Assembly: GCA_039831155.1 (NCBI GenBank)
Contig: JBDONT010000031.1
Location: forward strand, 1 to 30,797
Length of the DNA: 30,797 nt
Direction: 5' to 3'
From: Nautiliaceae bacterium
GTDB taxonomy: Bacteria; Campylobacterota; Campylobacteria; Campylobacterales; Nautiliaceae
This document shows, one piece after another, positions 137 to 13,452 of the stretch. Below the pieces are notes generated by a model. It worked only from the letters and a program-made list of their open reading frames with translations. It had not been told where the DNA came from and made no database searches. The number at the start of each line of letters is the position of its first letter. Position 1 is the first letter of the stretch. The position numbers and the translations under genes were made by a program.

Positions 137-883
137 TTAGTTACATTCGCTTTGATACACAAAACCTGTTGGAGTTATATTAATTTGTTTACAATGTTGA
201 ATATCACATACTAAATTAGTACAAAGCTGGATTTCAACTTTCTCTGTTAATAGTTCTCTTTCTAAATCTAAAGGATTAGTATCATTACCATCTCCTTGCA
301 ATCCTTCATTTAAATAAACATTACCATAATTATCAAATAATAGTTTTGAAGAGTTAGTAGTATTCACAGAAAAACCATTAAATAAAACTTTTACTATCCC
401 ATATTTACTAAGATTTAACTCTTCATTCCCTTCATTACCAGCTAAATATTTTTTATTTATAGGATCTTTTGCAAACTCGTAAAAAGGATATCCAACTCTA
501 TTAAACATAGAACTTGTACTACTTGAAGTGGTATAGGGAGAATCTGAAAAAATTTCATAAAAGTAATCACCATTACTTGTTTTACCTATTCTTAACTGCC
601 ACCACTGCTTAAACCAATACTTACTTCTATTGGTTTCACTTATAGTATTAGCATTAGGAAAAGGTTGATACTTATCATCTTTTAAAGCTAAACTTTGTGT
701 ATATCTTATATCTCTACTTAATCTATCTGCTGCTAATTTTAATTTATCAGGTGCAAAATTGAAACTAAAAGAAGAAACGATAATACCTATTATAATAATA
801 ACAATAACTAATTCAACTAAAGTAAATGCAGAAGAAAAATTATTTAATTTCTTCTGCTTGATCAACTTGGTATAGAATATCAT
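137..883 (-). CDS. Prepilin-type N-terminal cleavage/methylation domain protein (type II secretion/type IV pilus pseudopilin-like)
   Basis: A|FTLVELVIVIIIIGII class III signal motif with E5 and a hydrophobic helix; C-terminal cysteines. Start uncertain (ATG 883 or TTG 865); the track start at 976 runs far into aclA. Confidence 0.8.
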   Translation of the reverse strand: MIFYTKLIKQKKLNNFSSAFTLVELVIVIIIIGIIVSSFSFNFAPDKLKLAADRLSRDIRYTQSLALKDDKYQPFPNANTISETNRSKYWFKQWWQLRIGKTSNGDYFYEIFSDSPYTTSSSTSSMFNRVGYPFYEFAKDPINKKYLAGNEGNEELNLSKYGIVKVLFNGFSVNTTNSSKLLFDNYGNVYLNEGLQGDGNDTNPLDLERELLTEKVEIQLCTNLVCDIQHCKQINITPTGFVYQSECN

Positions 884-2690
884 CCCACGGATGTCTGTAC
901 ATTGGCATTCCAAGTCTTTTTTCATCAAGAATGTGCCCGATAAATCCGATACTTCTTCCGAGAATAAAGAATGCATTTAATGTCCCACTTTCAATAAATT
1001 CATTAATTTCTTTCTCAGTATACCCTAATGCTCTCCACATGTCAACCATTAAGATACCGATTGTACCGTCAACATTTAAAATTAAGTTTTCTTTTTTAGA
1101 AGTTGTTTCTTTCTCAACTTCCAATGCATAATCAAGTAAAGGTGTTGCTGGAAAGAATTCAGCTGCATATTTTTTAAGACCTTCAACCCTTTTATCCGGG
1201 TTTCTCACAGACTTAATTCTATGTCCAATACCAGGAATTGGAATACCTTGTTTTTTCATATATGCCAAGAATTCTTTAGGGTTCATTCCATTATCGTGTG
1301 CATATTTAAAGTAATATGCTGCACCATCAATAGCACCACCAAATCTTGGACCAATTGTAAGAAGACCTGTTACAAGAGATTCTACAACTGATTTACCAGC
1401 TCTTGCTGTAACTTTTGCGTTATGAGCACCACTTACTGCCGGTCCATGGTCTGCTACTGTTTTAATTACAGTTTCAATAAAATCAGTAGCCCATTTCGGA
1501 TATCTTTTCTTAAACCATAGAAGTGAAATAACATCACCAATGCTATATCCTGTATCTGGAGTTGCAACTTGGCTAATTGGAATACCAGCATATACTGCTT
1601 CTTCTCCTCTATCATCAGAAATAGTACATACGAAGTTTCTAGGTTTTCTAATTTTACCTGCTGCTAAAGCTTTGCTATAGTCTTCTGGAATTGGTGGAAC
1701 TACTGGTTCTTCGATTTCTCCGATTACACCTTCACCTTTTAGTTGTTCATATACACCTTTAATAACTTCCGGTAATTCATTAAAATTAGCCGGTACATAA
1801 ATACCTGCTTCTTTCATTGCTCTATTTTTAGCTTCCGCTGTCTCTTCATCGGCATTTGCACTTGCACCTGCGTGACCGAATTGAACACCACTTGAGAAAT
1901 GTTTAGCAATTGTACCGATACACCAACCAATTACCGGTTTTGTAATTTTTCCTTCTTTAATAGCTTCAATAATTTTATATTCTTCTCTACCACCAACTTC
2001 ACCAAGAAGAATCATATATTTAACTTTTGGATTTTTCTCCATTCTAAGCATATGGTCAATAAATGTTGAACCAACAAATCTGTCTCCACCAATTGCAACA
2101 CCCTCTGCTATTCCGTCTGCATTAAGTGCAATAATGTTACTTAATTCGTTAAATAGACCACCACTTCTTGTTACAAGTCCTGCACTTCCAGCTCTGTGAA
2201 GCTTAGATTTTACGATATTTTCAATTGTACCACCGATATTCGCAACTTTAAATGCACCTGGTGCAATAGCTCCAACTGTTGCAGGACCAATAATTGTTAC
2301 ACCTTTTTCTCTTGCGGTTTTATTCATAATTCTTGCGTGTCTTTCCGGAATACCTTCAGCCGTAATCATAATTACTCTGAATTGATCCATATTAAGAGCA
2401 TCCATAGTTACATCATAAGCCGTTCTAAATGATGCAAAGTTAAGTAATACATCTGCATTCGGATGATTTTTCACAGCTTCTGCTGTACTTCTGTAAATTG
2501 GAATCATAACCTCATCAGTTCCAAAAAAGAACTTTTCAAATTTATTTGAACTAGTTGGAGCAACTATTGCTGCAACTGATGGTTTTTCTCTTTGAATAAC
2601 ATAATCATAATCAAGCATTCTTTGAATTGCTGATTTATTATTATTCCAGAAAATTGCCTGTGTATCCCTTGTAAATAGTTCGTTAGCCAT
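840..2690 (-). CDS. aclA: ATP citrate lyase alpha subunit (reverse TCA cycle)
   Basis: CoA-binding/SucD-like N-terminal part (IIGPATVG, GDRF, phospho-His motif QFGHAGA) fused to a citryl-CoA lyase domain (DHGPAVSGAHN, GPRFGGA, PGIGHRIKS, LILNVDG); directly after aclB. Confidence 0.97.
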   Translation of the reverse strand: MANELFTRDTQAIFWNNNKSAIQRMLDYDYVIQREKPSVAAIVAPTSSNKFEKFFFGTDEVMIPIYRSTAEAVKNHPNADVLLNFASFRTAYDVTMDALNMDQFRVIMITAEGIPERHARIMNKTAREKGVTIIGPATVGAIAPGAFKVANIGGTIENIVKSKLHRAGSAGLVTRSGGLFNELSNIIALNADGIAEGVAIGGDRFVGSTFIDHMLRMEKNPKVKYMILLGEVGGREEYKIIEAIKEGKITKPVIGWCIGTIAKHFSSGVQFGHAGASANADEETAEAKNRAMKEAGIYVPANFNELPEVIKGVYEQLKGEGVIGEIEEPVVPPIPEDYSKALAAGKIRKPRNFVCTISDDRGEEAVYAGIPISQVATPDTGYSIGDVISLLWFKKRYPKWATDFIETVIKTVADHGPAVSGAHNAKVTARAGKSVVESLVTGLLTIGPRFGGAIDGAAYYFKYAHDNGMNPKEFLAYMKKQGIPIPGIGHRIKSVRNPDKRVEGLKKYAAEFFPATPLLDYALEVEKETTSKKENLILNVDGTIGILMVDMWRALGYTEKEINEFIESGTLNAFFILGRSIGFIGHILDEKRLGMPMYRHPWDDILYQVDQAEEIK

Positions 2691-4024
2691 TATTTCGCTC
2701 CTTTTTTATCATCTTCAAGTGCCATTCTTACAATATCGGTAATGTGAGTTTCCGGTCCATAAACTTCAATAGGAAGACCCAATCTTTCAGCTGCCGCTTT
2801 AATATCTTTTAAACCTTTTTCATAATTCGGTCCACCACGTCTAACATAAATTCTAACTCCAACATCTTTCATTTTATCCGCATATTTTTCAAATGCTTGA
2901 ATAATACCGGTAAATGTCTTGGCAACATCCGTAAAGTTTGCAATAGCCCCACCGATAATTAAGATTTTATCTCTACCTTGAGGGTCTTTTTCTCTTGTCA
3001 TTAAATCAAGTACAGTTTCAGTATAAAATCTTGTTTCATCAGTTGTAGGACCACCTGAATATTCTCCGTAATTTGCTAAATCTTCTACTCCACCTGCTAA
3101 ATCAGCAATAGTATCAGCATATACAACAGATGCACCACCACCAGCTACAAGAGTCCAGATTCTACCTTTCGGATTAAGAACAGTTAATTTAAGTGAAGCA
3201 CCACTTTTTGCATCTGCTTCTGCTATAGCTTTTTCTTCAGGTGATTTTTCCGGCATACCAAACGGTGTCGGGAATTCAATATCTCCCCATTTATCTTTCA
3301 TTAAAAATCCTGCCGTATCATCAAGTCTTGCAACCAAATCAAGTAGATATACATTATTACCTACAATTACAACTGGGTTAATTTCAAGATATGCAAAGTT
3401 TAGGTCTCTAAAAAATTTATAAAAGTTTACTGCAAAGTTTTTATAAACTTCTTTTTTATCTTCCGGAATATCTGCTGGAATATTTTCAGAGATAATCTTT
3501 TCAATCTCTTCATCAGTTGCGTCAATTGGAATTTTAACTTCTGTTACTTTATCCCAGTTTTCTTCAACTTCCATACCACCGTGAGCTGAAAGATAAAGCA
3601 CATCATTTGTTTCATCAAATGTAGTAGCTGCAATATAGTATTCTTCATCTTCTGTGTGAGGTGTAAATGGTTCTACGATAAAATGAGTAAGCTCACCACT
3701 TTGTCCGCTAAGAAGAGTAACTTTTCCGCTTCTTTTTTCATCAATCCATTTAGCTGCATCTTCAAGAGTCACATCACCCGGTTTATTTACTTTAAATAAA
3801 ACTAAACCGTTTTTACCCCTTTTACCAAAAAGCATATCCGGTTTTGCAACCAAAGGTTTTTCATTTAACCAATCATACCCGGGTTCTTTAGCTTTAGCTC
3901 TTAATTCATCTCCACTTGTTACAAGTACACTTTCAAACGGATAATTAAGTCCACTGAAATATTTATCCCAATTTTGGGCAAAAAGTTTTTTCCCATCATA
4001 TTCACGAATCGGTTTTTGAGCCAT
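2690..4024 (-). CDS. aclB: ATP citrate lyase beta subunit
   Basis: MAQKPIREYDGK start, KPDMLFGKRGK, LEINP, RLDDTA, AGGGASVVYAD, NYGEYSG, GGAIANFTDVA, RRGGPNY motifs; AAGGAG SD; 1-nt stop/start overlap with aclA. Confidence 0.97.
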   Translation of the reverse strand: MAQKPIREYDGKKLFAQNWDKYFSGLNYPFESVLVTSGDELRAKAKEPGYDWLNEKPLVAKPDMLFGKRGKNGLVLFKVNKPGDVTLEDAAKWIDEKRSGKVTLLSGQSGELTHFIVEPFTPHTEDEEYYIAATTFDETNDVLYLSAHGGMEVEENWDKVTEVKIPIDATDEEIEKIISENIPADIPEDKKEVYKNFAVNFYKFFRDLNFAYLEINPVVIVGNNVYLLDLVARLDDTAGFLMKDKWGDIEFPTPFGMPEKSPEEKAIAEADAKSGASLKLTVLNPKGRIWTLVAGGGASVVYADTIADLAGGVEDLANYGEYSGGPTTDETRFYTETVLDLMTREKDPQGRDKILIIGGAIANFTDVAKTFTGIIQAFEKYADKMKDVGVRIYVRRGGPNYEKGLKDIKAAAERLGLPIEVYGPETHITDIVRMALEDDKKGAK

Positions 4025-4051
4025 TAAATCTCCTTAAATTTTATTTTAGAA

Positions 4052-4060
4052 ATTGTAACA
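4052..4060 (-). promoter_or_regulatory. Extended -10 promoter element for aclBA
   Basis: TGtTACAAT on the minus strand about 28 nt upstream of the aclB ATG, followed by an AAGGAG SD. Confidence 0.55.
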
Positions 4061-4108
4061 TTTAATCCGTAAGATATAATCCTATTTTATAAATTGAGAA
4101 ATTTTTTT

Positions 4109-5257
4109 TTATAGTGTGTTTAGTTTTGAAACATTTATTTTTAAAATAACTTTTTTATTATATATAATGAAAACTTGAGAATTTTTTTTATTATATTCGA
4201 TAAAATATTTTCCGCCTTTTTTAATACCATAAAAATTTAACGCTTTCATAAAAGCATCATTGTCAGAATACACATAATCTATTTTATTCGATTTTAAAAT
4301 TTCAACTAAAGGTTTTATAAAATAGTAGCTACTCGTGAGTTTCCTGGCAGGTGTGGAAAAATTAAAAAACACTCCCACATCAAAACTAATTAAACTAATT
4401 AACAAAACAATAAATAATATTTTATGAATTATTCTAAAGTTAGGCAACCTTACTCTATACGAATTTAAAAACACCTTTACCATACAAACCATAAAAATAA
4501 CCATAAAAGGTGCATAATCGTCAACTTTTATTTTTTGTCTAAAAGAAAGAATCAAAGAAAATAAAAAACTAAACGCCGAAATAAAAAATATCAGATTTTT
4601 TTTCTTAAAAAAAAGACATTTATAAAGAGAATAAAGAAAATAAACAAAAACAAAAGGTGAAAAGATTAAAAAATAAATCCCTATTAAATCGATAAAATGA
4701 CCTTTTGGTTTTCCTCCTATATCGTAATGGAAATAGAAGAAATTAAAAGCAAGTAAAATTAAAGATAAGAAAACTAAAATATTATCTCTTTTATAAACGG
4801 CAAAAAATATCAAACTAAAAAAAAGAGGAATGAAACTGTAATCAATAAAAGCCAATAAAATCAGTACCAAATAAGAAATTTTTCGTAAAGTATGATAAAG
4901 ATAAATAAATAAAAGCGTTAAAAAAATCAAATAAATAGCCTTATTAATAATAAGAGAAGAGACAATCACACCAGGAATTAAAAAATAAAGATAAGTAGCC
5001 AAAAGAGCGTCTTTTCTTTTTAAATAAAAAAGTGCGATTTTATAAAAAAAATACAAACTAAAAGCGGAAACCAAAACACCGGGTAAACGAACGGCAACAT
5101 CATTATGTCCAAATATATAAACAGAAAAATCAAGTATATATTTAATAAAAGGAAAACTTTCCATTCCTTTTACATCTGTAATAGAAAAAGATAAAAAATT
5201 TACCCCGTATAAAAATAAAAAAAAGTAGAATAAAAAAAAGATAATAATATGTTTCAT
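4109..5257 (-). CDS. Polytopic membrane glycosyltransferase, GT-C fold (ArnT/PMT_2, family 39/83-like)
   Basis: About 10 hydrophobic segments; FGHNDVAVRLP motif typical of the ArnT/PMT_2 N-terminal region; ATGA overlap with pabA/trpG. Confidence 0.65.
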   Translation of the reverse strand: MKHIIIFFLFYFFLFLYGVNFLSFSITDVKGMESFPFIKYILDFSVYIFGHNDVAVRLPGVLVSAFSLYFFYKIALFYLKRKDALLATYLYFLIPGVIVSSLIINKAIYLIFLTLLFIYLYHTLRKISYLVLILLAFIDYSFIPLFFSLIFFAVYKRDNILVFLSLILLAFNFFYFHYDIGGKPKGHFIDLIGIYFLIFSPFVFVYFLYSLYKCLFFKKKNLIFFISAFSFLFSLILSFRQKIKVDDYAPFMVIFMVCMVKVFLNSYRVRLPNFRIIHKILFIVLLISLISFDVGVFFNFSTPARKLTSSYYFIKPLVEILKSNKIDYVYSDNDAFMKALNFYGIKKGGKYFIEYNKKNSQVFIIYNKKVILKINVSKLNTL

Positions 5258-5817
5258 ATTTTTAAAAAATTATTAATAATCTCTTTTCCGTATTCACTCA
5301 TAATCGATTCAGGATGAAACTGCACTCCGTAAATCGGTCTATCTTTTACCCTTAAGCTCATTATTTCACCATCATCCAAACTAAAAGAAGTGGGAATTAT
5401 ACATTTTGGCAACTTATCCGGATTAGCAACCAGGGAATGGTATCTTGTAACCCTAAACTTTTTTGGCAAATCTTTAAAAATATCATCTTCAATGGTAACT
5501 TCGATTTGAGAAGTTTTCCCGTGCATTAAATTTTTCGCTCTAATAATTTCTCCTCCAAAAGCATACGCAATAGACTGATGACCAAGACAAACCCCAAGAA
5601 TAGGTTTATCAATTTGTTTTATCACATCCACACTTACACCGGCTTCTTTTGGGGTAGAAGGACCTGGAGAGATAATTATTTTTTCCGGATTTAATCTTTT
5701 TATCTCTTCCACACTCATTTCATCATTTCTAATAACTTTTAAATTAGCACCAAGTTCTAAGCAGTATTGAACAATATTGTAAGTAAAACTATCGTAATTA
5801 TCTATTATAAGAACCAT
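5254..5817 (-). CDS. pabA: Anthranilate/aminodeoxychorismate synthase component II (class I glutamine amidotransferase; TrpG/PabA)
   Basis: IDNYDSFTYN, ISPGP, GVCLGHQ (catalytic Cys), RYHSL, QFHPES motifs. trpG and pabA cannot be distinguished from sequence alone. Confidence 0.93.
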   Translation of the reverse strand: MVLIIDNYDSFTYNIVQYCLELGANLKVIRNDEMSVEEIKRLNPEKIIISPGPSTPKEAGVSVDVIKQIDKPILGVCLGHQSIAYAFGGEIIRAKNLMHGKTSQIEVTIEDDIFKDLPKKFRVTRYHSLVANPDKLPKCIIPTSFSLDDGEIMSLRVKDRPIYGVQFHPESIMSEYGKEIINNFLKI

Positions 5818-5836
5818 AAAGTTCCTTTTTTATGGA

Positions 5837-5862
5837 ATTGTATCAAAATTATATGATAAAAT
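5837..5862. promoter_or_regulatory. Divergent extended -10 elements for pabA and metF
   Basis: Minus TGaTACAAT (5845-5837) and plus TGaTAAAAT (5854-5862) in a 68-bp intergenic gap. Confidence 0.5.
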
Positions 5863-5885
5863 TTTCAAAAAATTTAAGGGTAAAA

Positions 5886-6782
5886 ATGCTAAAAGAAAAA
5901 CTTAAAGGAAAATATATAACACTAGAAACAACTCCTCCTAAATTACCGACTGTAGATTTAATGATTGAAAATATAAAAAAAGCCGACGTCATTAAATACA
6001 TAGACGGATTTTCCACAACCGACTGTCCTCTTAGTAAATTAAAATACAATTCAATCATTGCAGCTTTTAAGCTCCAACAGACATTCAAAAAACCGGTAAT
6101 TGCTACAATGAGTATGAGAGATAGAAATAAAATAGCCCTTCAAAGCGATTTACTGGGAGCAAACGATTTAGACGTAACGCATATCTTAGCCCTAACAGGA
6201 GACCCGGCAAAAATGAGTGACCAACCGAATACAAAAGGAGTAGTCGAAGGAAGCAGCATTTTACTACTAGAAATAATAAGAGCTTTTAACAACGGAATGG
6301 ATTACAGTGGAAAAGAGTTTAAAATAAAACCAAAACCGATTACCCCTTTTGCGGTAAGTAACTCTTACGCCAAAAACTTTTCTTATATTGAAAAAAAGAT
6401 GTATAAAAAAATTAAAAATTATGCAGTAGGAATTATAACCCAACCGGTATTTGATTTGGAAATAGCAAAAAAACTATTAAATATAAAACAAAATATCAAT
6501 AATGAATTTAATGACGAAAGAAAAGAGTCTGAAATTGTATTCGGATTTTTTCCCATTACAAAACTAAAAACCGCCCAATTTCTAAAATCTCACGTCCCAG
6601 GCATTTTTGTACCGGATATCTGGATAGAAAAACTCATAAAAGCTCATAAAATAAGTGAAGAAGAAGAGTTTAAAGTCGGAATGGAGTTATCAAGAAAACT
6701 TTTTAAAAACATTTTAAAATTACACCCAAAAGTCCATATAATGACTGCTAATAAATTTGAAATAGTAAAAGAGCTTTTTTAA
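5886..6782 (+). CDS. metF: 5,10-methylenetetrahydrofolate reductase
   Basis: LETTPPK, TDCP, MRDRNKIALQS, LALTGDP, ITQPVFD, VPGIFVP motifs. Start moved to ATG 5886 (AAGGG SD upstream). Confidence 0.88.
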   Translation: MLKEKLKGKYITLETTPPKLPTVDLMIENIKKADVIKYIDGFSTTDCPLSKLKYNSIIAAFKLQQTFKKPVIATMSMRDRNKIALQSDLLGANDLDVTHILALTGDPAKMSDQPNTKGVVEGSSILLLEIIRAFNNGMDYSGKEFKIKPKPITPFAVSNSYAKNFSYIEKKMYKKIKNYAVGIITQPVFDLEIAKKLLNIKQNINNEFNDERKESEIVFGFFPITKLKTAQFLKSHVPGIFVPDIWIEKLIKAHKISEEEEFKVGMELSRKLFKNILKLHPKVHIMTANKFEIVKELF

Positions 6783-7603
6783 AAAGCTCTTAAATAACTT
6801 ACTAAGAATACGTTAGAATACGAATCTGCTCCACTTTTACTAAATTTACTTCTATTATAACTAACTTTTACGCTAGAAACTTTATCTAAAGAGTATTTAA
6901 CTGCTAGTCCATAACTATATTTATAATCTTCTCCCAAATTATAAACAGTAAATCCACCGTTTGCAACTTTATAAGCGTTTTTTCCAAAACTTCCACTTAT
7001 TGTTGTAGCCCAAGGTCCTTTATAGTTTTCCAATTTTAAATCAATATCCGTATAATTTGTTTTAGACGTATATCCGGACTTTGAAATATGAATATAATTT
7101 AATTTAGCCTCGGCATAAAAAGCTCCATCTTCCGCATAATAATTACCGAAATTAAATCCATATTTAGGAGAAATTTGATAAGCTTTAAAATTATCATAAG
7201 TAGACATATAAACATCAACTCCGACATTATATTTTAAATACTCATAATAAGTAGCTCCTGCGAACACTACATTATCGTATTTATCACTATTGTCTTTTTG
7301 GTTGATAAACATATTATGAATTCCGATTCTATAAGCATAATTATTACCATAATAATAATTACCCAAAAACGTAATATCGGTCTGTTTATAATTAGGGGTA
7401 GTATCTTTATATTTTATATACACATATTCCGTATCCAATTCAAACTTAAAAGGCAAAGAATCGATACTAGCATATACACCTACCAATCCGGCTTTATCTT
7501 TAGCGGTATTACCGCTATAATCTATAAAAGCTCCATACGGCATCACGTTCGCCGCCATTAAAGTCGTACCGAACAATGCTGCTATAGATAATAACTTTTT
7601 CAT
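6779..7603 (-). CDS. Putative outer-membrane beta-barrel protein, last gene of the RRE/ATP-grasp operon
   Basis: Sec signal peptide (MKKLLSIAALFGTTLMA), Tyr/Gly-rich alternating amphipathic strands, terminal strand VFLVSYLRAF ending in Phe (BAM signal); ATGA coupling to the upstream gene. Confidence 0.7.
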   Translation of the reverse strand: MKKLLSIAALFGTTLMAANVMPYGAFIDYSGNTAKDKAGLVGVYASIDSLPFKFELDTEYVYIKYKDTTPNYKQTDITFLGNYYYGNNYAYRIGIHNMFINQKDNSDKYDNVVFAGATYYEYLKYNVGVDVYMSTYDNFKAYQISPKYGFNFGNYYAEDGAFYAEAKLNYIHISKSGYTSKTNYTDIDLKLENYKGPWATTISGSFGKNAYKVANGGFTVYNLGEDYKYSYGLAVKYSLDKVSSVKVSYNRSKFSKSGADSYSNVFLVSYLRAF

Positions 7604-8181
7604 TTTATCTCCTTTAGTTTATATCCTAAATTTTTTTGATTTACTATTTCAAAACCAAGTTTTCTAAGATGAGAAATCAAAACTTTTATAGAATCAAGAC
7701 TCTCTATACTTTCACATTCCTGTAGAATTTCTTCTTTAGAAAGATATCTGTTACGATTTTTTATCAACGTTTCTAAAAGTTCTTTTTCAGCTCCACTTAA
7801 TTTAACGGGGATTGAACTTTTATACAACTCCCTCGCATTAAAATTATATAATAAATCCCCAAATTTAAAAACAAAATTTGTAGAATTTAAAACCTTTTTT
7901 TTTAAATACCTAAGGCGTATCAACAGCTTTTCATATTCATTATAAGAATAGCAATAATCACCTACTTCCAAAGCTTTTTTATAAATAAAAACATTACATT
8001 CATATGCTAAAAAAATAATCGTACTTTTTACAAAATCTTTTATTTCCAAATACTCTTTAAAATAATTAAAATCTACTACCAATACATCAAATTTTTTATT
8101 CAACACCTCATCAAAAAAAGATTCTTCATCCACTTTTTTTGCATTAGGTATATCCAGAAAAGAAAAATTTAATACTCTCAT
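7600..8181 (-). CDS. OmpR/PhoB-type winged-helix regulator with degenerate receiver domain
   Basis: C-terminal LSGAEKELLETL...LSKEEIL...IKVLISHLRK...GYKL Trans_reg_C signature; N-terminal receiver keeps VLVVD but lacks the acidic pocket, the Thr/Ser and the conserved Lys. Confidence 0.8.
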   Translation of the reverse strand: MRVLNFSFLDIPNAKKVDEESFFDEVLNKKFDVLVVDFNYFKEYLEIKDFVKSTIIFLAYECNVFIYKKALEVGDYCYSYNEYEKLLIRLRYLKKKVLNSTNFVFKFGDLLYNFNARELYKSSIPVKLSGAEKELLETLIKNRNRYLSKEEILQECESIESLDSIKVLISHLRKLGFEIVNQKNLGYKLKEIK

Positions 8182-8765
8182 TTATTAAAATATTCTTTTG
8201 CTACAACGTTATTAGGGTCTAGAATAAGCACGTTTTTAAAAATTTTACCGGCATCTCTTTTTGTAAGCTCATAAATTTTACCAAGTTCAACTAAAAACAG
8301 AACACTCGTAGGATATATACTTAACATTCTATTTACCAATATTTCAGCTACTTTATAGTTTTTTAAAGCTACAAGAGATAAGACTTCATAATAATTCCCA
8401 TAATAATTATAATAATCACTCTTTAAAATCACATCTCCTATTTTCAACGCATTTGAATAATCCCCCATAGCATAGTAAACTCTCATCATTCCAAGCTTAG
8501 CTTCCAATGAAGAAGGAATACTCATAGAAGCCTTTTGATAATGAAAAATAGAATTTTTATAATTCTTATTCAAATAAAAAAGCCATCCAAGCCTTAGATT
8601 AACCGTATAAGCATTAAGATATTTATTATAAAGAGGAATGAGAACTTTTATAGCGTCTTTATAATCCCCCATTTTTTCATAATTATAAGATTCATAATAA
8701 ATCTTTTTTATATCCATTGCAAACAAACCGACAAACAAACTAATAACCAAAATTATCTTTTTCAT
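8178..8765 (-). CDS. Exported tetratricopeptide-repeat protein
   Basis: Signal peptide MKKIILVISLFVGLFA; TPR-like units (LRLGWLFYLNKNYKNSIFHYQKA; LGMMRVYYAMGDYSNAL; LGKIYE...VLILDPNN). Confidence 0.8.
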   Translation of the reverse strand: MKKIILVISLFVGLFAMDIKKIYYESYNYEKMGDYKDAIKVLIPLYNKYLNAYTVNLRLGWLFYLNKNYKNSIFHYQKASMSIPSSLEAKLGMMRVYYAMGDYSNALKIGDVILKSDYYNYYGNYYEVLSLVALKNYKVAEILVNRMLSIYPTSVLFLVELGKIYELTKRDAGKIFKNVLILDPNNVVAKEYFNK

Positions 8766-10773
8766 TATATACTCTCCTTAATTCCATTCCGTTTTTCAAT
8801 TTTATTTTATCAAAACCTTTCTCATAAAACGAAAAATCCACCTCTCCGAATTTAGATAGAATTTTTAACTGTTCTTTTTTATAAACAACTTCTTTATTAA
8901 AAATTTTGAAATTAAAAGGCAATAAAAATTCAAACAATAATTTCTTAACCCCACTAAATCTAAATTCAAAAGAGATAATGTCTTTATATTCAACTTCTTT
9001 ATTTATCAAAGGAACTTTAGGAGCCAGCTTAAACAACTCTTTTAAAAAGCTCTCTTTTCCTTCATATTCATAAAAATAAAACAGCTTCTCATCCAAATAA
9101 AAAAACAGCTTATTCTCTCCGTCCCAAAAATAGAATTCTCCCTTTTCATTCATTTTTACCGTTATCTCTTTTTGAGAAATTTTTTCTCCCTCTTTTAATA
9201 CATCATATTTAAAAACATCATCCAAAATAAAAGTAAGTCTTAATTTCATAGATTTATCAATCACACTCGCTTCTATCTCCTCACCCTTTTTAGGTGAATC
9301 ATAATAATAAAGTCTATTGTCTTTTATAAAATCCACAAACTTAAAAGGTAAAGTCTCACTTCCCAAAACCCCGTATTTTTGAACTTGAATATGGATGTGA
9401 GGCTCCGGAGAATATCCACTGTTTCCACATTTACCTATAATATCTCCACCCCTAACATAATCCCCTACTTTTACAGTAATGGAATTTTGCATTAAATGAG
9501 AAATTTCAACAAAATATCCAAAATCACTTTTTATAATAATATAATTCCCCCAATTGTTAACTCTATCTACATTTCCTATAAAATTATCCGGTAAATCATT
9601 ACGCAAAGCAACCACATATCCATTGATAGGAGCCGTTACAACTTTTCCAAAAGCATAATAATCCTCTAAAAACAACCCGTCATTAGCATATGTTTTTCCA
9701 TTCTTTTTAATAACAAAATCATAAGCATATTTCCAGCTTCCCTTATGAGTCCACTCATCGTCAAAAGCTTGATATACACTCCACTTTCCGGTAAACGGGA
9801 GGTTTATTTTAATATCGTTTCCTCCAAATCTAAAAACCAAACTCAAATAAGAAAGCAGAGATTTTTCGGGAGTCGATTTTATAGCATAATTAAAATATTT
9901 ATACCCTACGCTAAATAAAAGCATAATAAACAAAAGCGTAATTAAATTAAAAGGAAGAGTATAAACCGGCAAAGAATAGATATTAAAAAACACTTCCATT
10001 GAATCAATCAACACAACAGAAAGCACCACTCCCAAAAAAGCCAAAAGAAAACTTTTAATATTGGGAATTAAAAATATTCCTCCAAGTGCCATAGCAATTA
10101 ACAAAAAGTTAAAGTTATAAGGAGAATAAAGGGCTTGAGAAAAAGGAATAAATAAAGAGTGTACAAAAACCCCTATCCAAAATCCCACAAAAGCTAGAAA
10201 AAACAGAATTCTAGAATAAAAAAGAAGTATCAACGCTATAAAAAACCCGGCAACCGTATAAGGTAAAAAGAAAATTGTCCCTAACGACTTGAAAAAAGAA
10301 TCAAAAGGCAAATTTATATCAAAAAGAGCTTTTCTGTGAAGCAAATTGATAAATAAATTGGTATATTTTAAACTGGCTAAATAAAAAAGCATACTCACAA
10401 AAGCAAAAGGCAAAGATAAAATAGGCAAAGAATACTTAATAAAAACCCTATTTAAGCTAAAAGAGACTAAAAATGTCAAAATCGAAAGCAATATAGTTAA
10501 GATTATCGTTACATACGTTACATCAAAAAAATACCCGACCCCCATTCCCACCAATAAAGAGTTATAAAGATAAAACCCGTATTTTAAATACTCATCCCTG
10601 ATATTAATAAATTCGGCAAACAAAATCGTAGAAATAATAGCAACAAGACCTAAAATCCCCACACTAGGCAATAAAAAAGAGAGCAAAAATAAAAATGCCC
10701 CTACTTTTAAATCCTGTAAAAAAAGAATGGAAACATAAGGTTTAAAAATAAATTTTATCTTTTTTATTTTCAA
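8740..10773 (-). CDS. Urea-transporter (UT)-fold membrane domain fused to an M23 zinc metallopeptidase domain
   Basis: N-terminal ~290 aa with about 10 TM segments and the duplicated UT signature LPILSLPF / LPVYTLPF plus YNSLLVG / FNFLLIA; then M23 motifs H343...D352 (HKGSWKYAYD), APINGYV, GNYIII, GDIIGKCGNSGYS, H459-x-H461. TTG start. Confidence 0.85.
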   Translation of the reverse strand: MKIKKIKFIFKPYVSILFLQDLKVGAFLFLLSFLLPSVGILGLVAIISTILFAEFINIRDEYLKYGFYLYNSLLVGMGVGYFFDVTYVTIILTILLSILTFLVSFSLNRVFIKYSLPILSLPFAFVSMLFYLASLKYTNLFINLLHRKALFDINLPFDSFFKSLGTIFFLPYTVAGFFIALILLFYSRILFFLAFVGFWIGVFVHSLFIPFSQALYSPYNFNFLLIAMALGGIFLIPNIKSFLLAFLGVVLSVVLIDSMEVFFNIYSLPVYTLPFNLITLLFIMLLFSVGYKYFNYAIKSTPEKSLLSYLSLVFRFGGNDIKINLPFTGKWSVYQAFDDEWTHKGSWKYAYDFVIKKNGKTYANDGLFLEDYYAFGKVVTAPINGYVVALRNDLPDNFIGNVDRVNNWGNYIIIKSDFGYFVEISHLMQNSITVKVGDYVRGGDIIGKCGNSGYSPEPHIHIQVQKYGVLGSETLPFKFVDFIKDNRLYYYDSPKKGEEIEASVIDKSMKLRLTFILDDVFKYDVLKEGEKISQKEITVKMNEKGEFYFWDGENKLFFYLDEKLFYFYEYEGKESFLKELFKLAPKVPLINKEVEYKDIISFEFRFSGVKKLLFEFLLPFNFKIFNKEVVYKKEQLKILSKFGEVDFSFYEKGFDKIKLKNGMELRRVYNEKDNFGY

Positions 10774-10777
10774 TTTC

Positions 10778-12115
10778 TTAACCTTTTAAGAAATCCGGAA
10801 TAATCTCTTTTTCCACAACATACTCTAAATTATCGGCTTCTCTTATTAAGTGAGTATTTGAGTCTTTGTCTATAAGTACAATTTTAGGTCTATATCTGAT
10901 AAACTGCATAGATTGAGTAACGTTATAAGCCCCTACCGGCCAAATACTAAGTACCGTACCTCTCTCAAGAGGTGGTAACATAATATTTTCTGCAATAATA
11001 TCAATATTCATACATAAAGGTCCGTTTATCTGACTATGTTCATTTAACCCTTCATATCTTTTATCAAGAGATATCTCAAAATTGTACCAAAACGCCGTAT
11101 ACAAAAGATTCACTCCAGCATCTACAATATAACTCTTTTTACCATCCGGCATTCTTTTGGAAGCAAATACACTTGTTAATAAAAATCCGGCTTCATCTAT
11201 CAAAGCACGACCGGTTTCTAAATAAAGCTTAGGAAGTTTCCCTTTATTATGTTCAAAAATAGCATTAGTAACAGCCTCTGCATATTCATCGGCACTAGGG
11301 ACTATAACTTCCGGAGCCTGATATACACCTTTTAGTCTATTTTTTGAAGCAAATCCACCTCCTATATCAATATATTCAATCTCATATCCGAAATCTTTTT
11401 CAACTCTGTTTTTAAGTTCTATCAATTTTTTAGTTTCATTTGTATAAGCTTCGGCACTTAACATAAAAGTACCTATATGAGAATGAAGTCCGATTAAATA
11501 AAGTTTTTTACCTTCAAAAATTCTTTTTATGGCATCATAAGCCTCACCGTTATCGATATTAAATCCGAATCTACTCCATTGAGGATAAACTCCCGTATCC
11601 ATATTACATCTAATAGCCACCGGAATTTCTATTCCAAGCTCTTCCGCTATCTCTTCAAGGTCATTTATTTCATACCAATGGTCAATATGAATTTTAGCTC
11701 CTTCTTTTACTGCTACTTTTAAAGTTTCTTTTGGTTTGTAAGGTCCATTAAAGATTATATCCTTTCCTTCAATTCCAAGACGTCTTGCTTTTTGGTATTC
11801 AAATTCACTAACAACTTCGGCTTTACTTCCAAGTTTATGATAAATTTTACAAATAGCGTCAAAATAGTTTGTTTTATAACTCCACCAAAACTCAACTTCC
11901 GGATATCTACTTGAAAAAGCGTTTTTAAACTCAAGATATTTATCTTCAATTGCTCTTTGACTAAACACAAAAAGTGGACTTCCGTATTTTTCCGTAAGTT
12001 CTCTAACACTTACCCCGTCAATCTCACCTCTTATTTTTTGGGTTTTAAGTGGACTTCCATATTTACTCGCCATTGCAAAATCAACTCTATTAATAGTAGG
12101 TTTTTCATAATTCAT
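10778..12115 (-). CDS. Fold-type III PLP-dependent decarboxylase (diaminopimelate/ornithine decarboxylase superfamily, MccE-like; probably not LysA) with N-terminal extension
   Basis: SYKTN (PLP Lys), IFNGPYK, SRFG, HSHIGT, DIGGGF, ETGR, DAG, GPLCMNID, GAY motifs; AAGGAG SD. Confidence 0.85.
   Translation of the reverse strand: MNYEKPTINRVDFAMASKYGSPLKTQKIRGEIDGVSVRELTEKYGSPLFVFSQRAIEDKYLEFKNAFSSRYPEVEFWWSYKTNYFDAICKIYHKLGSKAEVVSEFEYQKARRLGIEGKDIIFNGPYKPKETLKVAVKEGAKIHIDHWYEINDLEEIAEELGIEIPVAIRCNMDTGVYPQWSRFGFNIDNGEAYDAIKRIFEGKKLYLIGLHSHIGTFMLSAEAYTNETKKLIELKNRVEKDFGYEIEYIDIGGGFASKNRLKGVYQAPEVIVPSADEYAEAVTNAIFEHNKGKLPKLYLETGRALIDEAGFLLTSVFASKRMPDGKKSYIVDAGVNLLYTAFWYNFEISLDKRYEGLNEHSQINGPLCMNIDIIAENIMLPPLERGTVLSIWPVGAYNVTQSMQFIRYRPKIVLIDKDSNTHLIREADNLEYVVEKEIIPDFLKG
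11972..12064 (-). repeat. Direct repeat encoding KYGSPL twice in the decarboxylase N-terminus
   Basis: aagtggacttccgtattt (11972-11989) and aagtggacttccatattt (12047-12064): 17/18 identical, 75 nt (25 codons) apart, in frame. Confidence 0.85.
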
Positions 12116-12130
12116 AATTCACTCCTTAAA

Positions 12131-13141
12131 TTAAATCTCTTTTTTTGATATCAACGTAGAAAATTTATTAAAATCAACCATCGTCTCTTCTACATATCTT
12201 ACATACATCTTTTCGCTAGGATAATCAAATCTTTTTTCAACTTTTTTACCTTCAATTAAATCCAATAAACTTTGAGGCAGATTAACTCCAAGCATTGTGG
12301 AAAAATACACCCACGCCGGAAATCTAGGGTTTATTTCTATTAAATATATATCTTTTCCATCACTCATAGCCTCAAACTCAAAAGCACCTCTCCAACCTAT
12401 CATTTCAACAAATTTCTTACTTACACTGAAAAGCTGTTCATTTTTAATACTCACGGCACTCCAAACTTTACCTAAATCCGTAGTGGTTAATTTTTTCATT
12501 CCCATACCTGCTACAAGACTCTCTCCATCTCCAATACCTACAAAGTTAATTTCTATCCCACTTATAACCTCTTGAACCAAAAGAGGGAATCCCCATTCAT
12601 TTGATATTTTATAATAATACTCAATCGCTTCATCCAAATTATAAGCTTTATAAGCTTTATAATAATTTCCTTTTACCATTACCGGAAATCCAATTTCTTT
12701 AGTGGCTTTTATCAAATCATCAAGAGAAACCACCTCTATGGTTTTTGGATGTTTAACACCAAGTTTTTTACTAAATTCTGGTAATTTACTTTTATCCCTC
12801 ATCTCAAAACACTCAAGGCTCGGCAGATAAGTTTTAATTCCAAGCTCTTTTATCTCTTTTTGATATTTAATATAAAGAGGAAGTTCTGCATCAAGGGTCG
12901 GAATTGCAACTTCAATATTTGACTTTTCTTTAATATCCGTTATTCTTTTTTTAAACTCTTCATACCCTAAACTAGGATACGGCATAAGATAAACTTTTTC
13001 AAAAAGCCCCTGATAAATCCCCGGTTCATTAGGGTCGTAACTAAGCCCTATTAAAGTATTTTTATCCATTAAACTTTTCGCAACCGGAATTCCGGGTGCC
13101 GGATTGTCAGTATTGTTAAGCCCACTTACTGCCACTCTCAT
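12131..13141 (-). CDS. ATP-grasp ligase (CarB-like single ATP-grasp), substrate unknown
   Basis: RDKSKL, IGFPVMVKG, LVQEVISGIE, FEFEAM, IYLIEINPRF ATP-grasp motifs; ATGA overlap with the RRE gene. Confidence 0.88.
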   Translation of the reverse strand: MRVAVSGLNNTDNPAPGIPVAKSLMDKNTLIGLSYDPNEPGIYQGLFEKVYLMPYPSLGYEEFKKRITDIKEKSNIEVAIPTLDAELPLYIKYQKEIKELGIKTYLPSLECFEMRDKSKLPEFSKKLGVKHPKTIEVVSLDDLIKATKEIGFPVMVKGNYYKAYKAYNLDEAIEYYYKISNEWGFPLLVQEVISGIEINFVGIGDGESLVAGMGMKKLTTTDLGKVWSAVSIKNEQLFSVSKKFVEMIGWRGAFEFEAMSDGKDIYLIEINPRFPAWVYFSTMLGVNLPQSLLDLIEGKKVEKRFDYPSEKMYVRYVEETMVDFNKFSTLISKKEI

Positions 13142-13374
13142 TTTATAAGCTCATATACTTTAAGTTTTTGAAAAAAATCTTCAACATCTATATAAACATC
13201 TCTACAACTTTTCCCACTCTCTTGAGATAAAATCTTTACAATCTCTTCTTTACTTTTTCCTTCTTTAATAAGCTGAATAATCTTTTTTGCAGATTCATTT
13301 AGCTGATAAGATGTCCCAAGTGAAGGAATAAATCCCATATTATTTTCGTCAATTATCATTTCATGTAACAACAT
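13138..13374 (-). CDS. Stand-alone PqqD-family / RiPP recognition element (RRE) protein
   Basis: 78 aa; three short strands then SYQLNESAKKIIQLI, SKEEIVKILSQE, DVYIDVEDFFQKLKVYELI, matching the PqqD beta3-alpha3 pattern (LN..A..I; D...F...L....LI); AAGGAG SD at 13386-13381. Confidence 0.82.
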   Translation of the reverse strand: MLLHEMIIDENNMGFIPSLGTSYQLNESAKKIIQLIKEGKSKEEIVKILSQESGKSCRDVYIDVEDFFQKLKVYELIK

Positions 13375-13401
13375 ATTTAACTCCTTTAAGTATTTGTAAG
13401 A

Positions 13402-13407
13402 ATTATA
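13402..13407 (-). promoter_or_regulatory. Putative -10 element for the RRE/ATP-grasp operon
   Basis: TATAAT on the minus strand 27 nt upstream of the RRE ATG in the 78-bp gap after guaB. Confidence 0.45.
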
Positions 13408-13452
13408 TAATATTAAAGTTAATGAAGAGTAAATAAAAGAAAAAAAGAGAGG

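Follow-up and report, generated by a model that had tools for sequence, protein, structure and literature searches.

A Nautiliaceae contig of 30,797 nucleotides (JBDONT010000031.1 of assembly GCA_039831155.1, the whole of which is called the window here) carries seven consecutive minus-strand genes for a RiPP recognition element (RRE; RiPP, a peptide made by the ribosome and modified after translation), an ATP-grasp ligase, a fold-III pyridoxal phosphate (PLP) decarboxylase, a urea-transporter-type (UT) channel fused to an M23 metallopeptidase, a tetratricopeptide repeat (TPR) protein, a winged-helix regulator and a beta-barrel. Six of them, all but the regulator, recur as a unit in many phyla. 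From conservation and complex modelling, the RRE of this unit seems to bind a leader-like motif on the neighbouring decarboxylase, not a separate peptide. The whole proposal, to which we give a rough probability of 0.45, is that ligase and decarboxylase form an enzyme pair, that the RRE clamps the N-terminal tail of the decarboxylase, that the UT-M23 protein provides a hydrolytic step, and that UT pore, TPR protein and barrel together export the product.

Conservation of the module

The UT-M23 fusion has matches in 669 clusters (50% identity) with E ≤ 1e-30. With an alignment of 35 diverse UT-M23 members as the seed, a scan that took one genome per species matched at least 595 places; the locus counts given here refer to the best 80 of these. 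All open reading frames (ORFs) of the 80 loci were searched with the seven window proteins (phmmer), and the loci were assigned at phylum level by their record titles. The 80 loci span at least 14 phylum-level groups: 27 Campylobacterota, 11 Aquificota, 10 Gammaproteobacteria, 6 Planctomycetota, 4 Verrucomicrobiota/Victivallales, 4 Ignavibacteria/Melioribacteraceae, 3 Gemmatimonadota, 3 Desulfobacterota-type, 2 Calditrichota, 2 Cyanobacteria, 2 unclassified, and one each of Zetaproteobacteria, Magnetococcales, Nitrospinia, Rhodothermales, Cloacimonadota and a Gracilibacteria-labelled bin. The closest relatives of the window UT-M23 protein are found in Nautilia, Caminibacter and Lebetimonas (67–77% identity). 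The first-pass annotation of the window had taken the genes for one functional set, and the same set does co-occur in many phyla far outside this lineage; because the arrangement recurs across phyla, it goes beyond chance.

Upstream of the UT-M23 gene, RRE, ATP-grasp and decarboxylase genes were all found by phmmer in 54 of the 63 loci with at least 3 kb on that side; two loci gave ATP-grasp and decarboxylase only, and seven none. Small-ORF clustering recovered an RRE in two phmmer-partial loci (L053, L070), bringing the total to 56/63. Downstream, a TPR and/or barrel gene is present in 52 of the 61 loci with at least 2.5 kb: 40 have both (four of them with a regulator), 11 have TPR without barrel (three with a regulator) and one has the barrel only, so that the TPR gene occurs in 51 and neither gene in nine. 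All five partners are present in 29 of the 47 loci assessable on both sides, and all six genes in 38 loci if flank length is ignored. In most cases the genes follow one another as RRE, ATP-grasp, decarboxylase, UT-M23, barrel and TPR; in Nautiliaceae the enzymes are followed by UT-M23, TPR, regulator and barrel.

All-against-all clustering of 1,170 ORFs gave no further family in more than five loci, except a regulator-like family in 18. The genes that flank the module in the window (guaB, gatA, metF, pabA) recur only in L001 and L004, and the six-gene unit is therefore an autonomous block that moves as such. The set had been described as one of seven genes, of which six recur as a unit; the regulator stands beside the module only in Campylobacterota loci (L001, L004, L005, L007, L008, L009, L016, L021), so the conserved unit comprises six genes, and the regulator is lineage-specific and outside it.

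Components of the module are also joined by gene fusion. In the 868-aa protein P0273 an ATP-grasp enzyme (E 6e-62; 36% identity to the window ATP-grasp, with 99% of the query covered) is joined by a low-complexity linker of some 80 aa to a fold-III decarboxylase; the two enzymes are fused in P0274 and P0276 as well, which are more distant. Fusion of UT-M23 with C-terminal TPR repeats was found in four of eight long forms scanned (P0137, P0158, P0169, P0172).

A Shewanella-type locus (L058, 9950–19598) contains a different enzyme pair. Here UT-M23 and TPR genes are followed by a 912-aa fold-I decarboxylase of the Orn/Lys/Arg type, a 519-aa ATP-grasp protein of the PRK06524 family (546 bits), a C45 autoproteolytic hydrolase/acyltransferase, a 295-aa barrel homologue (hhalign probability 94.5%, E 8e-8) and a second TPR protein. 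Its ATP-grasp protein resembles the window family at superfamily level only, in the nucleotide-binding core (hhalign probability 84.5%). A second locus (L062) has the same ORF layout, from which its content is deduced, the Pfam scan being partial, and a third (L068) has UT-M23 and two TPR proteins. An RRE hidden in the 265-aa N-terminal extension of the Shewanella decarboxylase was considered and rejected (hhalign probability 0.1%). The presence of two non-orthologous ligase and decarboxylase versions beside UT-M23, TPR and barrel argues that ligase and decarboxylase supply what the envelope part handles. The third of these loci is titled as a metagenome-assembled genome of Klebsiella pneumoniae, yet it is like the Shewanella loci and may be mis-binned.

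The recognition element and the precursor search

The 78-aa protein, which the first-pass annotation had read as a PqqD-fold RRE, is a genuine RRE-type PqqD domain. It matches PqqD PF05402 with 39.1 bits (cut-off 23.4; E 9.5e-10), and its profile finds the lasso B1 proteins TbiB1 (5v1u, E 6.6e-12) and TfuB1 (6jx3, 1.5e-9) ahead of PqqD (3g2b, 0.0025) among solved structures. The PqqD equivalog TIGR03859 scores 21.1 against a cut-off of 46, and domain scans of window ORFs of at least 100 aa found none of the PQQ operon partners pqqA, pqqB, pqqC and pqqE, nor lasso cyclase, radical SAM or urease domains, as had been reported from the first reading. RRE fusions were absent from an RRE-profile search of longer proteins, which is weak evidence.

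The RRE as a LysW-like carrier was considered and rejected, as it is without a conserved C-terminal acidic tail. Residues D63, D66 and F67 are common to TbiB1 and are therefore fold features, not acceptor sites.

A precursor peptide gene was sought at several scales. Among small ORFs of at least 20 aa in the window none qualifies, and space is restricted to 78 nt upstream of the RRE gene and internal overlaps or gaps of at most 26 nt, with a convergent gene downstream. In loci with at least 450 nt upstream of the RRE gene, no conserved small ORF (12–90 aa) was found in those 450 nt. Clustering of 3,979 ORFs of 18–100 aa around the 80 loci gave a sole cross-lineage family, the RRE itself (five loci). 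Since no precursor gene was found in or beside the cluster, neither in the window nor as a conserved gene of the 80 loci, the classical RiPP reading is left without a substrate.

The decarboxylase tail as predicted ligand

The decarboxylase has an N-terminal tail of 28 residues that is absent from diaminopimelate (DAP) decarboxylases. Alignments to 7kh2 and 1tuf start at residues 28–29, its solved relatives are without the tail, and a 32-aa tail query gave no match among solved chains of at least 20 residues. Across 28 sequences the tail residues Y3, P6 and K18 never vary, and conservation is at least 90% at K5, I8 and G20. The motif Y..P.[ILVM] occurs in 60 of 64 decarboxylase family members, against 6 of 561 unrelated ORFs of the same loci (first 45 residues). 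The four exceptions are two WEKPVI, one YEKPLF and the apparently frame-disrupted L070.

The spacing of the tail is conserved as well. Counted from the Tyr in 63 sequences, offset 0 is Y or W (63/63), +2 is K (57/63), +3 is P (63/63), +5 is I (58/63), +7 is K or R (61/63), +15 is K (58/63), +16 is F or Y (55/63) and +17 is G (57/63). In lasso numbering the tail reads Y(-17), P(-14), I(-12), K(-2), F/Y(-1) and G(+1). The fusion P0273 keeps YERPSI and R-F-G with the same spacing, immediately behind its linker. Lasso B1-type RREs hold the YxxP and a conserved Leu of the leader in a hydrophobic cleft (passages of PMC6784204), and the lasso leader motif occupies positions -17 to -12, with Gly1 opening the core (passages of PMC10368454).

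A complex model of decarboxylase and RRE scored 0.82, against 0.00 for the best of three controls. Three runs gave 0.62, 0.82 and 0.82, with at least 71% of contacts in agreement and a partner pLDDT (predicted local distance difference test) of at least 85. Among solved complexes 116 of 157 attain that mark, as do 2 of 215 mismatched pairs; for own alignments these figures are only approximate. On the decarboxylase side the confident modelled interface is confined to residues 1–11. On the RRE it involves residues 13, 21–29, 31–32, 49, 52–55, 60, 63–64, 66–67, 70–71 and 74. In the model the tail is added as a strand along RRE residues 21–29, and P6 and I8 lie between this strand and the helices. 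Judged by aligned positions, the modelled interface corresponds to the leader-binding mode of RREs.

Ligase and decarboxylase

The ATP-grasp protein matches ATPgrasp_Ter with 35.2 bits (cut-off 29.1). In 29 sequences E269-x-N271 and K157 are invariant, the nucleotide and metal positions are intact, and mean column identity is 57%. The closest solved proteins are the stand-alone CPSase-like 2pn1 (4.4e-19) and the carbamate domain of carbamoyl phosphate synthetase (CPSase), and by sequence the enzyme is of the carboxylate-amine ligase type (CPSase-like PRK12767/ATPgrasp_Ter). The ESM Atlas returned generic 'carboxylate-amine ligase' clusters, without a functional hint. A 717-aa protein (P0272) comprises two tandem copies of this ATP-grasp family, and a 721-aa ESM Atlas cluster has 344 members.

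The decarboxylase matches Orn_Arg_deC_N (108 bits) and Orn_DAP_Arg_deC (45.8 bits) and is more conserved than the ATP-grasp protein, with 67% mean column identity. The PLP lysine K81, H211/H213 (HxHxGT), GGG, E300-G-R303 (ExGR) and C368 (CMNID) are invariant. Its closest solved relative is the N-citrylornithine decarboxylase 7kh2 (3.1e-54), followed by DAP decarboxylases; further relatives are D-Orn/D-Lys decarboxylase and the L-glutamyl-ACP (acyl carrier protein) decarboxylase BtrK (7ru7, 1.4e-26; 2j66, 2.2e-26). These solved relatives act on an amino acid centre with a bulky group carried or tethered at the far end.

The segment 'mmrpamyeayh' of 1tuf corresponds to LLYTAFWYNFE in the window enzyme, which has no Arg there, as in FslC, and the Arg-less segment is kept family-wide (64 sequences). 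In DAP decarboxylases we take this Arg to bind the distal carboxylate of DAP. Two assignments were rejected: LysA, as TIGR01048 stays under its cut-off (235.1 against 297.9) and the Arg of the distal-carboxylate segment is missing, and FslC, as NF041039 stays under its cut-off (218.7 against 500) and the window has no NIS (non-ribosomal-peptide-synthetase-independent siderophore) synthetase domain.

The UT-M23 fusion and the envelope proteins

The UT-M23 protein was modelled with a pLDDT of 92.3. Its UT part matches dvUT (3k3g) with a target-normalised TM (template modelling) score of 0.80–0.84, and M23 folds were matched too. UT pore signatures are present in both halves (LPILSLPF and LPVYTLPFN; LPVFTLPF in human UT-A), and the yut equivalog TIGR03441 gives 94.7 against a cut-off of 274.6. 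All 35 sequences keep the five canonical His/Asp positions of the M23 domain, H343, D352, H426, H459 and H461. The spacing of the first pair is H-x8-D; the canonical M23 form is HxxxD. Matches to the NCBIfam models Pgp3, MepM and ShyA fall far below the cut-offs. The C-terminal domain also occurs with M23, without UT, in 415-aa proteins of the ESM Atlas, where a search with this domain gave DUF3108/DUF6134-like models and no functional hint.

The UT match ends at about residue 290–310, a single short helix (302–316) precedes M23 in the model, and the N-terminus is Lys-rich. In the fused UT-M23-TPR proteins P0158, P0169 and P0244 a hydropathy scan gives one hydrophobic segment, which separates the TPR part from the M23/C-terminal region. 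UT proteins have both termini in the cytoplasm. Given this topology, the Lys-rich N-terminus and the crude hydropathy scan, M23 and the C-terminal beta domain would lie in the cytoplasm and the TPR in the periplasm. We know of no characterised counterpart of a cytoplasmic M23 domain fused to a channel.

The TPR protein has an N-terminal hydrophobic, signal-like or anchor helix. The regulator matches Trans_reg_C with 33.1 bits (cut-off 26.2), and the Pfam scan gave no Response_reg (receiver) match at E ≤ 0.01. The barrel protein has a signal peptide and a C-terminal Phe and matches no Pfam or NCBIfam family; its model (pLDDT 92.6) has 14 strands. Its closest solved match is OmpG (2f1c, E 1.5e-8), with FadL and CymA also among the top matches, and the PgaA barrel (4y25) ranks only 30th. 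A layout across both membranes, with UT channel, TPR protein and barrel, is supported at the level of sequence and models, as first described. Of the TPR-barrel export pair likened there to AlgE, PgaA and BcsC, the TPR protein and an outer-membrane barrel stand, the latter being a small OmpG-like barrel and not a secretin.

Proposed mechanism

Gene conservation, fusions, folds, and motif and register were computed, as was the modelled interface between RRE and tail, and the proposal builds on them. ATP-grasp and decarboxylase would act as a pair. By analogy to FslC, DAP decarboxylase and BtrK, the ligase may tether an amino acid via its side chain or join an amino acid to a carboxylate, and the decarboxylase would then strip the free alpha-carboxylate, giving a small amine or amide. 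The RRE would clamp YxxPxI at the N-terminus of the decarboxylase and serve no free precursor peptide; tail residues 12–28, with the invariant K18 and the conserved G20, would be left free for a partner enzyme or for docking. The pair would work at the cytoplasmic face of the UT-type channel, whose own cytoplasmic M23 domain would perform a hydrolytic step with the tail or a tethered product as its target. The product, small and polar, could then leave by the UT pore and cross the periplasm and outer membrane by the TPR protein and the OmpG-like barrel. We infer the topology, the order of steps, the transport direction and the nature of the product. The earlier outline 'make-cleave-export' is reasonable as such; its precursor gene was not found, its barrel is not of the secretin type and its peptidase is probably cytoplasmic.

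Several points weigh against this proposal. The complex score may reflect the model's memory of the solved lasso RRE-leader complexes 5v1v and 6jx3, and what the complex model indicates is that the tail resembles a leader to the model, which is likeness and not binding. The Shewanella variant has no RRE, UT-M23 stands without the enzymes in 7/63 loci (L008, L035, L038, L058, L062, L068, L073), and TPR and barrel are both missing nearby in 9/61. Pairwise distances between components correlate (r 0.67–0.93), and shared species phylogeny would give the same. The cytoplasmic placement of M23 leans on a crude hydropathy scan, the Lys-rich N-terminus and general UT topology; one fused protein (P0172) has one strong and one borderline hydrophobic segment, and another (P0137) has several. 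The UT pore is narrow, and UT may thus be an anchor or sensor, not a conduit, and the module may work in the import direction. Each step of the chemistry is drawn by analogy.

Alternative readings

A bolder form of the proposal, which we regard as rather doubtful, makes the decarboxylase the RRE's own 'precursor'. Residues 1–19 would be a lasso-type leader which the RRE presents to M23 at the mouth of the UT channel, and either M23 would cut before Gly20 or Lys18 would serve as a carrier arm. With a cut, the enzyme would be switched on only where its product can leave, and in fusions such as P0273 the cut would also part ligase from decarboxylase. With a carrier arm, the ATP-grasp enzyme would tether the substrate to the swinging Lys18, the decarboxylase would convert it and M23 would release it into the pore, in a LysW/LysK-like manner.

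A true RiPP pathway, the kind of model given in the first-pass annotation, was weighed too: the RRE would deliver a peptide encoded elsewhere to the ATP-grasp enzyme, the decarboxylase would modify a side-chain-linked residue, M23 would remove the leader, and UT, TPR and barrel would export the peptide. The genuine lasso-B1-like RRE, the intact endopeptidase domain and the ATP-dependent amide-forming enzyme all suit it, and precursors can be so tiny or divergent that small-ORF screens, blind to likeness limited to a short motif, would miss them. We hold it to be unlikely nevertheless: the window has no room for a small gene, no small-ORF family other than the RRE recurs in the 80 loci, and the matching, invariant motif is borne by the adjacent decarboxylase. 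Enzyme conservation at 57% and 67% mean column identity is unusual for a RiPP cluster, the UT pore motifs suit a small solute and not a peptide, and the Shewanella variant lacks the RRE.

Uptake or envelope remodelling was also considered. Barrel and UT would admit a small amide or peptidoglycan-derived compound, M23 would cleave it and the enzymes would convert the pieces; or the enzymes would modify peptidoglycan precursors. UT proteins are passive channels and OmpG-like barrels uptake porins, M23 enzymes typically cut peptidoglycan peptides, and the decarboxylase is a relative of DAP decarboxylase. It would, however, be unusual for catabolism to involve an RRE and a ligase that consumes ATP, genes for peptidoglycan synthesis or recycling are not conserved in the neighbourhood, the decarboxylase segment LLYTAFWY is without Arg, as in FslC, and export machines are where a TPR bridge to a barrel is typically seen, which makes this reading improbable.

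Chance neighbourhood or operon packing without common function, to which the position among housekeeping genes might point, is highly improbable in view of the same set in similar order in at least 14 phylum-level groups with unrelated flanks, and of two kinds of gene fusion that join components.

Relation to known systems

The first-pass annotation knew of no characterised pathway with this gene set, and none was found in the literature searched, which left most subscription journals outside its scope. The UT+M23 fusion appears in print only as a domain architecture, as far as passages of PMC12998343 go, and passages of PMC8939145, PMC12710340 and PMC10092268 hold nothing on the cluster.

Lasso peptide systems share three roles with the module, namely RRE, peptidase and ATP-dependent amide-forming enzyme. 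The module RRE is nearest to the B1 proteins TbiB1 and TfuB1, and its predicted ligand motif is in the lasso register with the conserved Gly at +1. The module peptidase is, however, M23, whereas lasso B2 is transglutaminase-like, and the ligase is ATP-grasp, whereas the lasso cyclase is Asn-synthetase-like; neither B2 transglutaminase-type peptidase nor Asn-synthetase-like cyclase domains were found in window ORFs of at least 100 aa. Position -2 is Lys in the module and Thr in lasso leaders, and the module has no acidic residue at +7 to +9. The 'leader' is part of a 445-aa enzyme, and the membrane part is a UT channel in place of an ABC transporter.

The BtrI/BtrJ/BtrK and LysW/LysX/LysK systems have adjacent genes for a small protein, an ATP-grasp enzyme and a fold-III decarboxylase, and in the LysW pathway a metallopeptidase releases the product. 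The small protein of the module has a PqqD fold, unlike ACP or LysW, and no C-terminal acidic tail; its conserved D63/D66 are general RRE residues, and tethering would follow by analogy. In rhizoferrin synthesis by FslA/FslC of Francisella, an amino acid is ligated first and decarboxylated when tethered. FslC (7kh2) is the best solved relative of the module decarboxylase, and both are without the Arg segment; the module ligase is, however, ATP-grasp and not a NIS synthetase, the cluster has no major facilitator superfamily exporter or FslE, and within the aligned region FslC shows no YxxPxI tail.

In concept the module comes closest to the scaffold system of fosfazinomycin, where RiPP machinery assembles a small molecule on the scaffold peptide FzmZ and a peptidase releases it (passages of the preprint PMC13622209). 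That scaffold is a free short peptide, whereas the only RRE-type motif found in the module is on the decarboxylase.

On the envelope side, a periplasmic TPR protein paired with an outer-membrane barrel is also found in the AlgK/AlgE, PgaA and BcsC exporters, and in peptidase-containing ABC exporters a peptidase domain is fused to the inner-membrane transport component, as in UT-M23. The module barrel has 14 strands (OmpG/FadL/CymA-like), whereas secretin barrels have 16–18; the conserved set has no glycosyltransferase, and the inner-membrane part is a passive UT channel without an ATPase. With dvUT, UT-A and UT-B the channel shares the UT fold and the LPxxS/TLPF pore signatures of both halves, but it is fused to M23 and a further domain, and the window has no urease. 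The module thus borrows lasso recognition, the ligase-decarboxylase logic of BtrJ/BtrK or FslA/FslC and the TPR-barrel outline, and falls outside each of these systems by its defining features.

Ribosomal peptide natural products are located with RREs as a marker that does not depend on their class. The tail of a neighbouring enzyme as the ligand of an RRE, if true, would be a new use of the domain and would explain some 'orphan' RREs without a nearby precursor. Were the decarboxylase itself the precursor, either outcome would be the first RiPP recognition logic on a full-size enzyme. UT+M23 proteins are annotated as urea transporters in public records, and conclusions on the nitrogen cycle in vent Campylobacterota, Aquificota and many further phyla could be led astray by this label. 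The module is widespread, strongly conserved and amenable to experiments, and knowing what it makes could bring to light an envelope-related metabolite common among diderm bacteria.

Gene layout and flanks

The coordinates and named domains of the seven ORFs (6779–13374) given in the first-pass annotation agree with the ORF list and the Pfam/NCBIfam scans (Table 1). The junctions are also as first described: neighbouring genes overlap by 4 nt at 13141/13138, 8181/8178 and 7603/7600 and by 26 nt at 8765/8740, and the other two junctions are gaps of 15 and 4 nt. By direct reading, a putative Shine-Dalgarno site AAGGAG and a candidate -10 hexamer TATAAT lie upstream of the ATG at 13374; the TATAAT site was not listed by the promoter scan, which requires both hexamers. 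As to the flanks, guaB (TIGR01302, 642.5 bits) lies on one side, and on the other a gene with a methylenetetrahydrofolate reductase (MTHFR) domain, which is convergent to the barrel gene and overlaps it by 4 nt.

Table 1. Features of the module and its borders in the window
Feature	Position	Strand	Remarks
RRE gene, PqqD fold, 78 aa	13138..13374	minus	PF05402 and profile matches
ATP-grasp gene, 336 aa	12131..13141	minus	ATPgrasp_Ter / CPSase-like PRK12767 type
Fold-III PLP decarboxylase gene, 445 aa	10778..12115	minus	Orn_Arg_deC_N and Orn_DAP_Arg_deC
Decarboxylase N-terminal tail, residues 1–28	12032..12115	minus	absent from DAP decarboxylases
YxxPxI motif	12092-12109	minus	tail residues 3–8
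K18-F/Y19-G20	12056-12064	minus	
UT-M23 fusion gene, 677 aa	8740..10773	minus	TTG start; Pfam UT and Peptidase_M23
UT-type channel, ~aa 1–295	9889-10773	minus	Pfam UT PF03253, 204.1 bits
M23 metallopeptidase, ~aa 330–480	9334-9786	minus	Peptidase_M23, 48.3 bits
Beta-rich C-terminal domain, aa 490–677	8743-9306	minus	resembles DUF3108/DUF6134-like models
TPR protein gene, 195 aa	8178..8765	minus	TPR Pfam matches
OmpR-type winged-helix regulator gene, 193 aa	7600..8181	minus	Trans_reg_C
14-strand beta-barrel gene, 274 aa	6779..7603	minus	structure model
guaB-to-RRE spacer, 78 nt	13375..13452	minus	TATAAT 13407-13402, AAGGAG 13386-13381
Palindromic terminator-like hairpin	6769..6791		10-pair stem; common to the convergent barrel and MTHFR-domain genes

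Single loci among the 80 show departures from the usual arrangement. UT-M23 is without the enzymes in L038 and L072 (Persephonella records) and in L008, L035 and L073, and a further Persephonella locus (L030) has the full module; in L008 the gene is accompanied only by TPR and regulator. Such solitary UT-M23 genes could be paralogues, or else the genomes in question could carry the module in separate parts. In a Thermovibrio record (L044, 188–920) a second RRE and a partial ATP-grasp gene lie about 2 kb upstream of a complete module and are a local duplication or remnant. On L025, a contig labelled Candidatus Gracilibacteria, an RRE, an ATP-grasp enzyme, a decarboxylase and a UT-M23 protein are encoded, with 48% identity to the Campylobacterota-like query; a module linked to the outer membrane suggests mis-binning when it stands in a bin of the candidate phyla radiation. 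In the Nautiliaceae record L004 a 4-kb insert (2524–6517) between guaB and the module encodes a TAXI-type TRAP (tripartite ATP-independent periplasmic) transporter, with NMT1_3 binding proteins (one apparently split) and a DctM fusion, and is unrelated to the module.

The window has about 30% G+C, and its housekeeping genes include ATP-citrate lyase, ileS, guaB, gatA, ruvB and dnaK. The 'metF' gene (5832–6782, plus strand) is, by its model scores, a divergent MTHFR: NF006396, a bifunctional homocysteine methyltransferase/MTHFR model of which the MTHFR half is matched, gives 181.7 bits (cut-off 453), and the classical MetF model TIGR00676 a weaker 45.3 bits (cut-off 293.7). A 382-aa membrane protein gene (4109–5257, minus strand) matches PMT_2 (ArnT/PMT-like GT-C glycosyltransferase) and has a 4-nt overlap with pabA/trpG; ORF clustering in the 80 loci did not find it kept beside the module. 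The 279-aa ORF at 137–976 (minus strand) has no Pfam match and overlaps the 3' end of the 840–2690 gene by 137 nt, so either its start was called too far upstream or it is spurious. The ATP-citrate lyase genes (840–4024, minus strand) consist of an ORF with Citrate_bind and ATP-citrate synthase ATP-grasp domains (2690–4024) and one with CoA-ligase and citrate-synthase C-terminal domains (840–2690). ATP-citrate lyase is a marker of the reductive tricarboxylic acid cycle and fits a chemolithoautotroph of the Nautiliaceae type.

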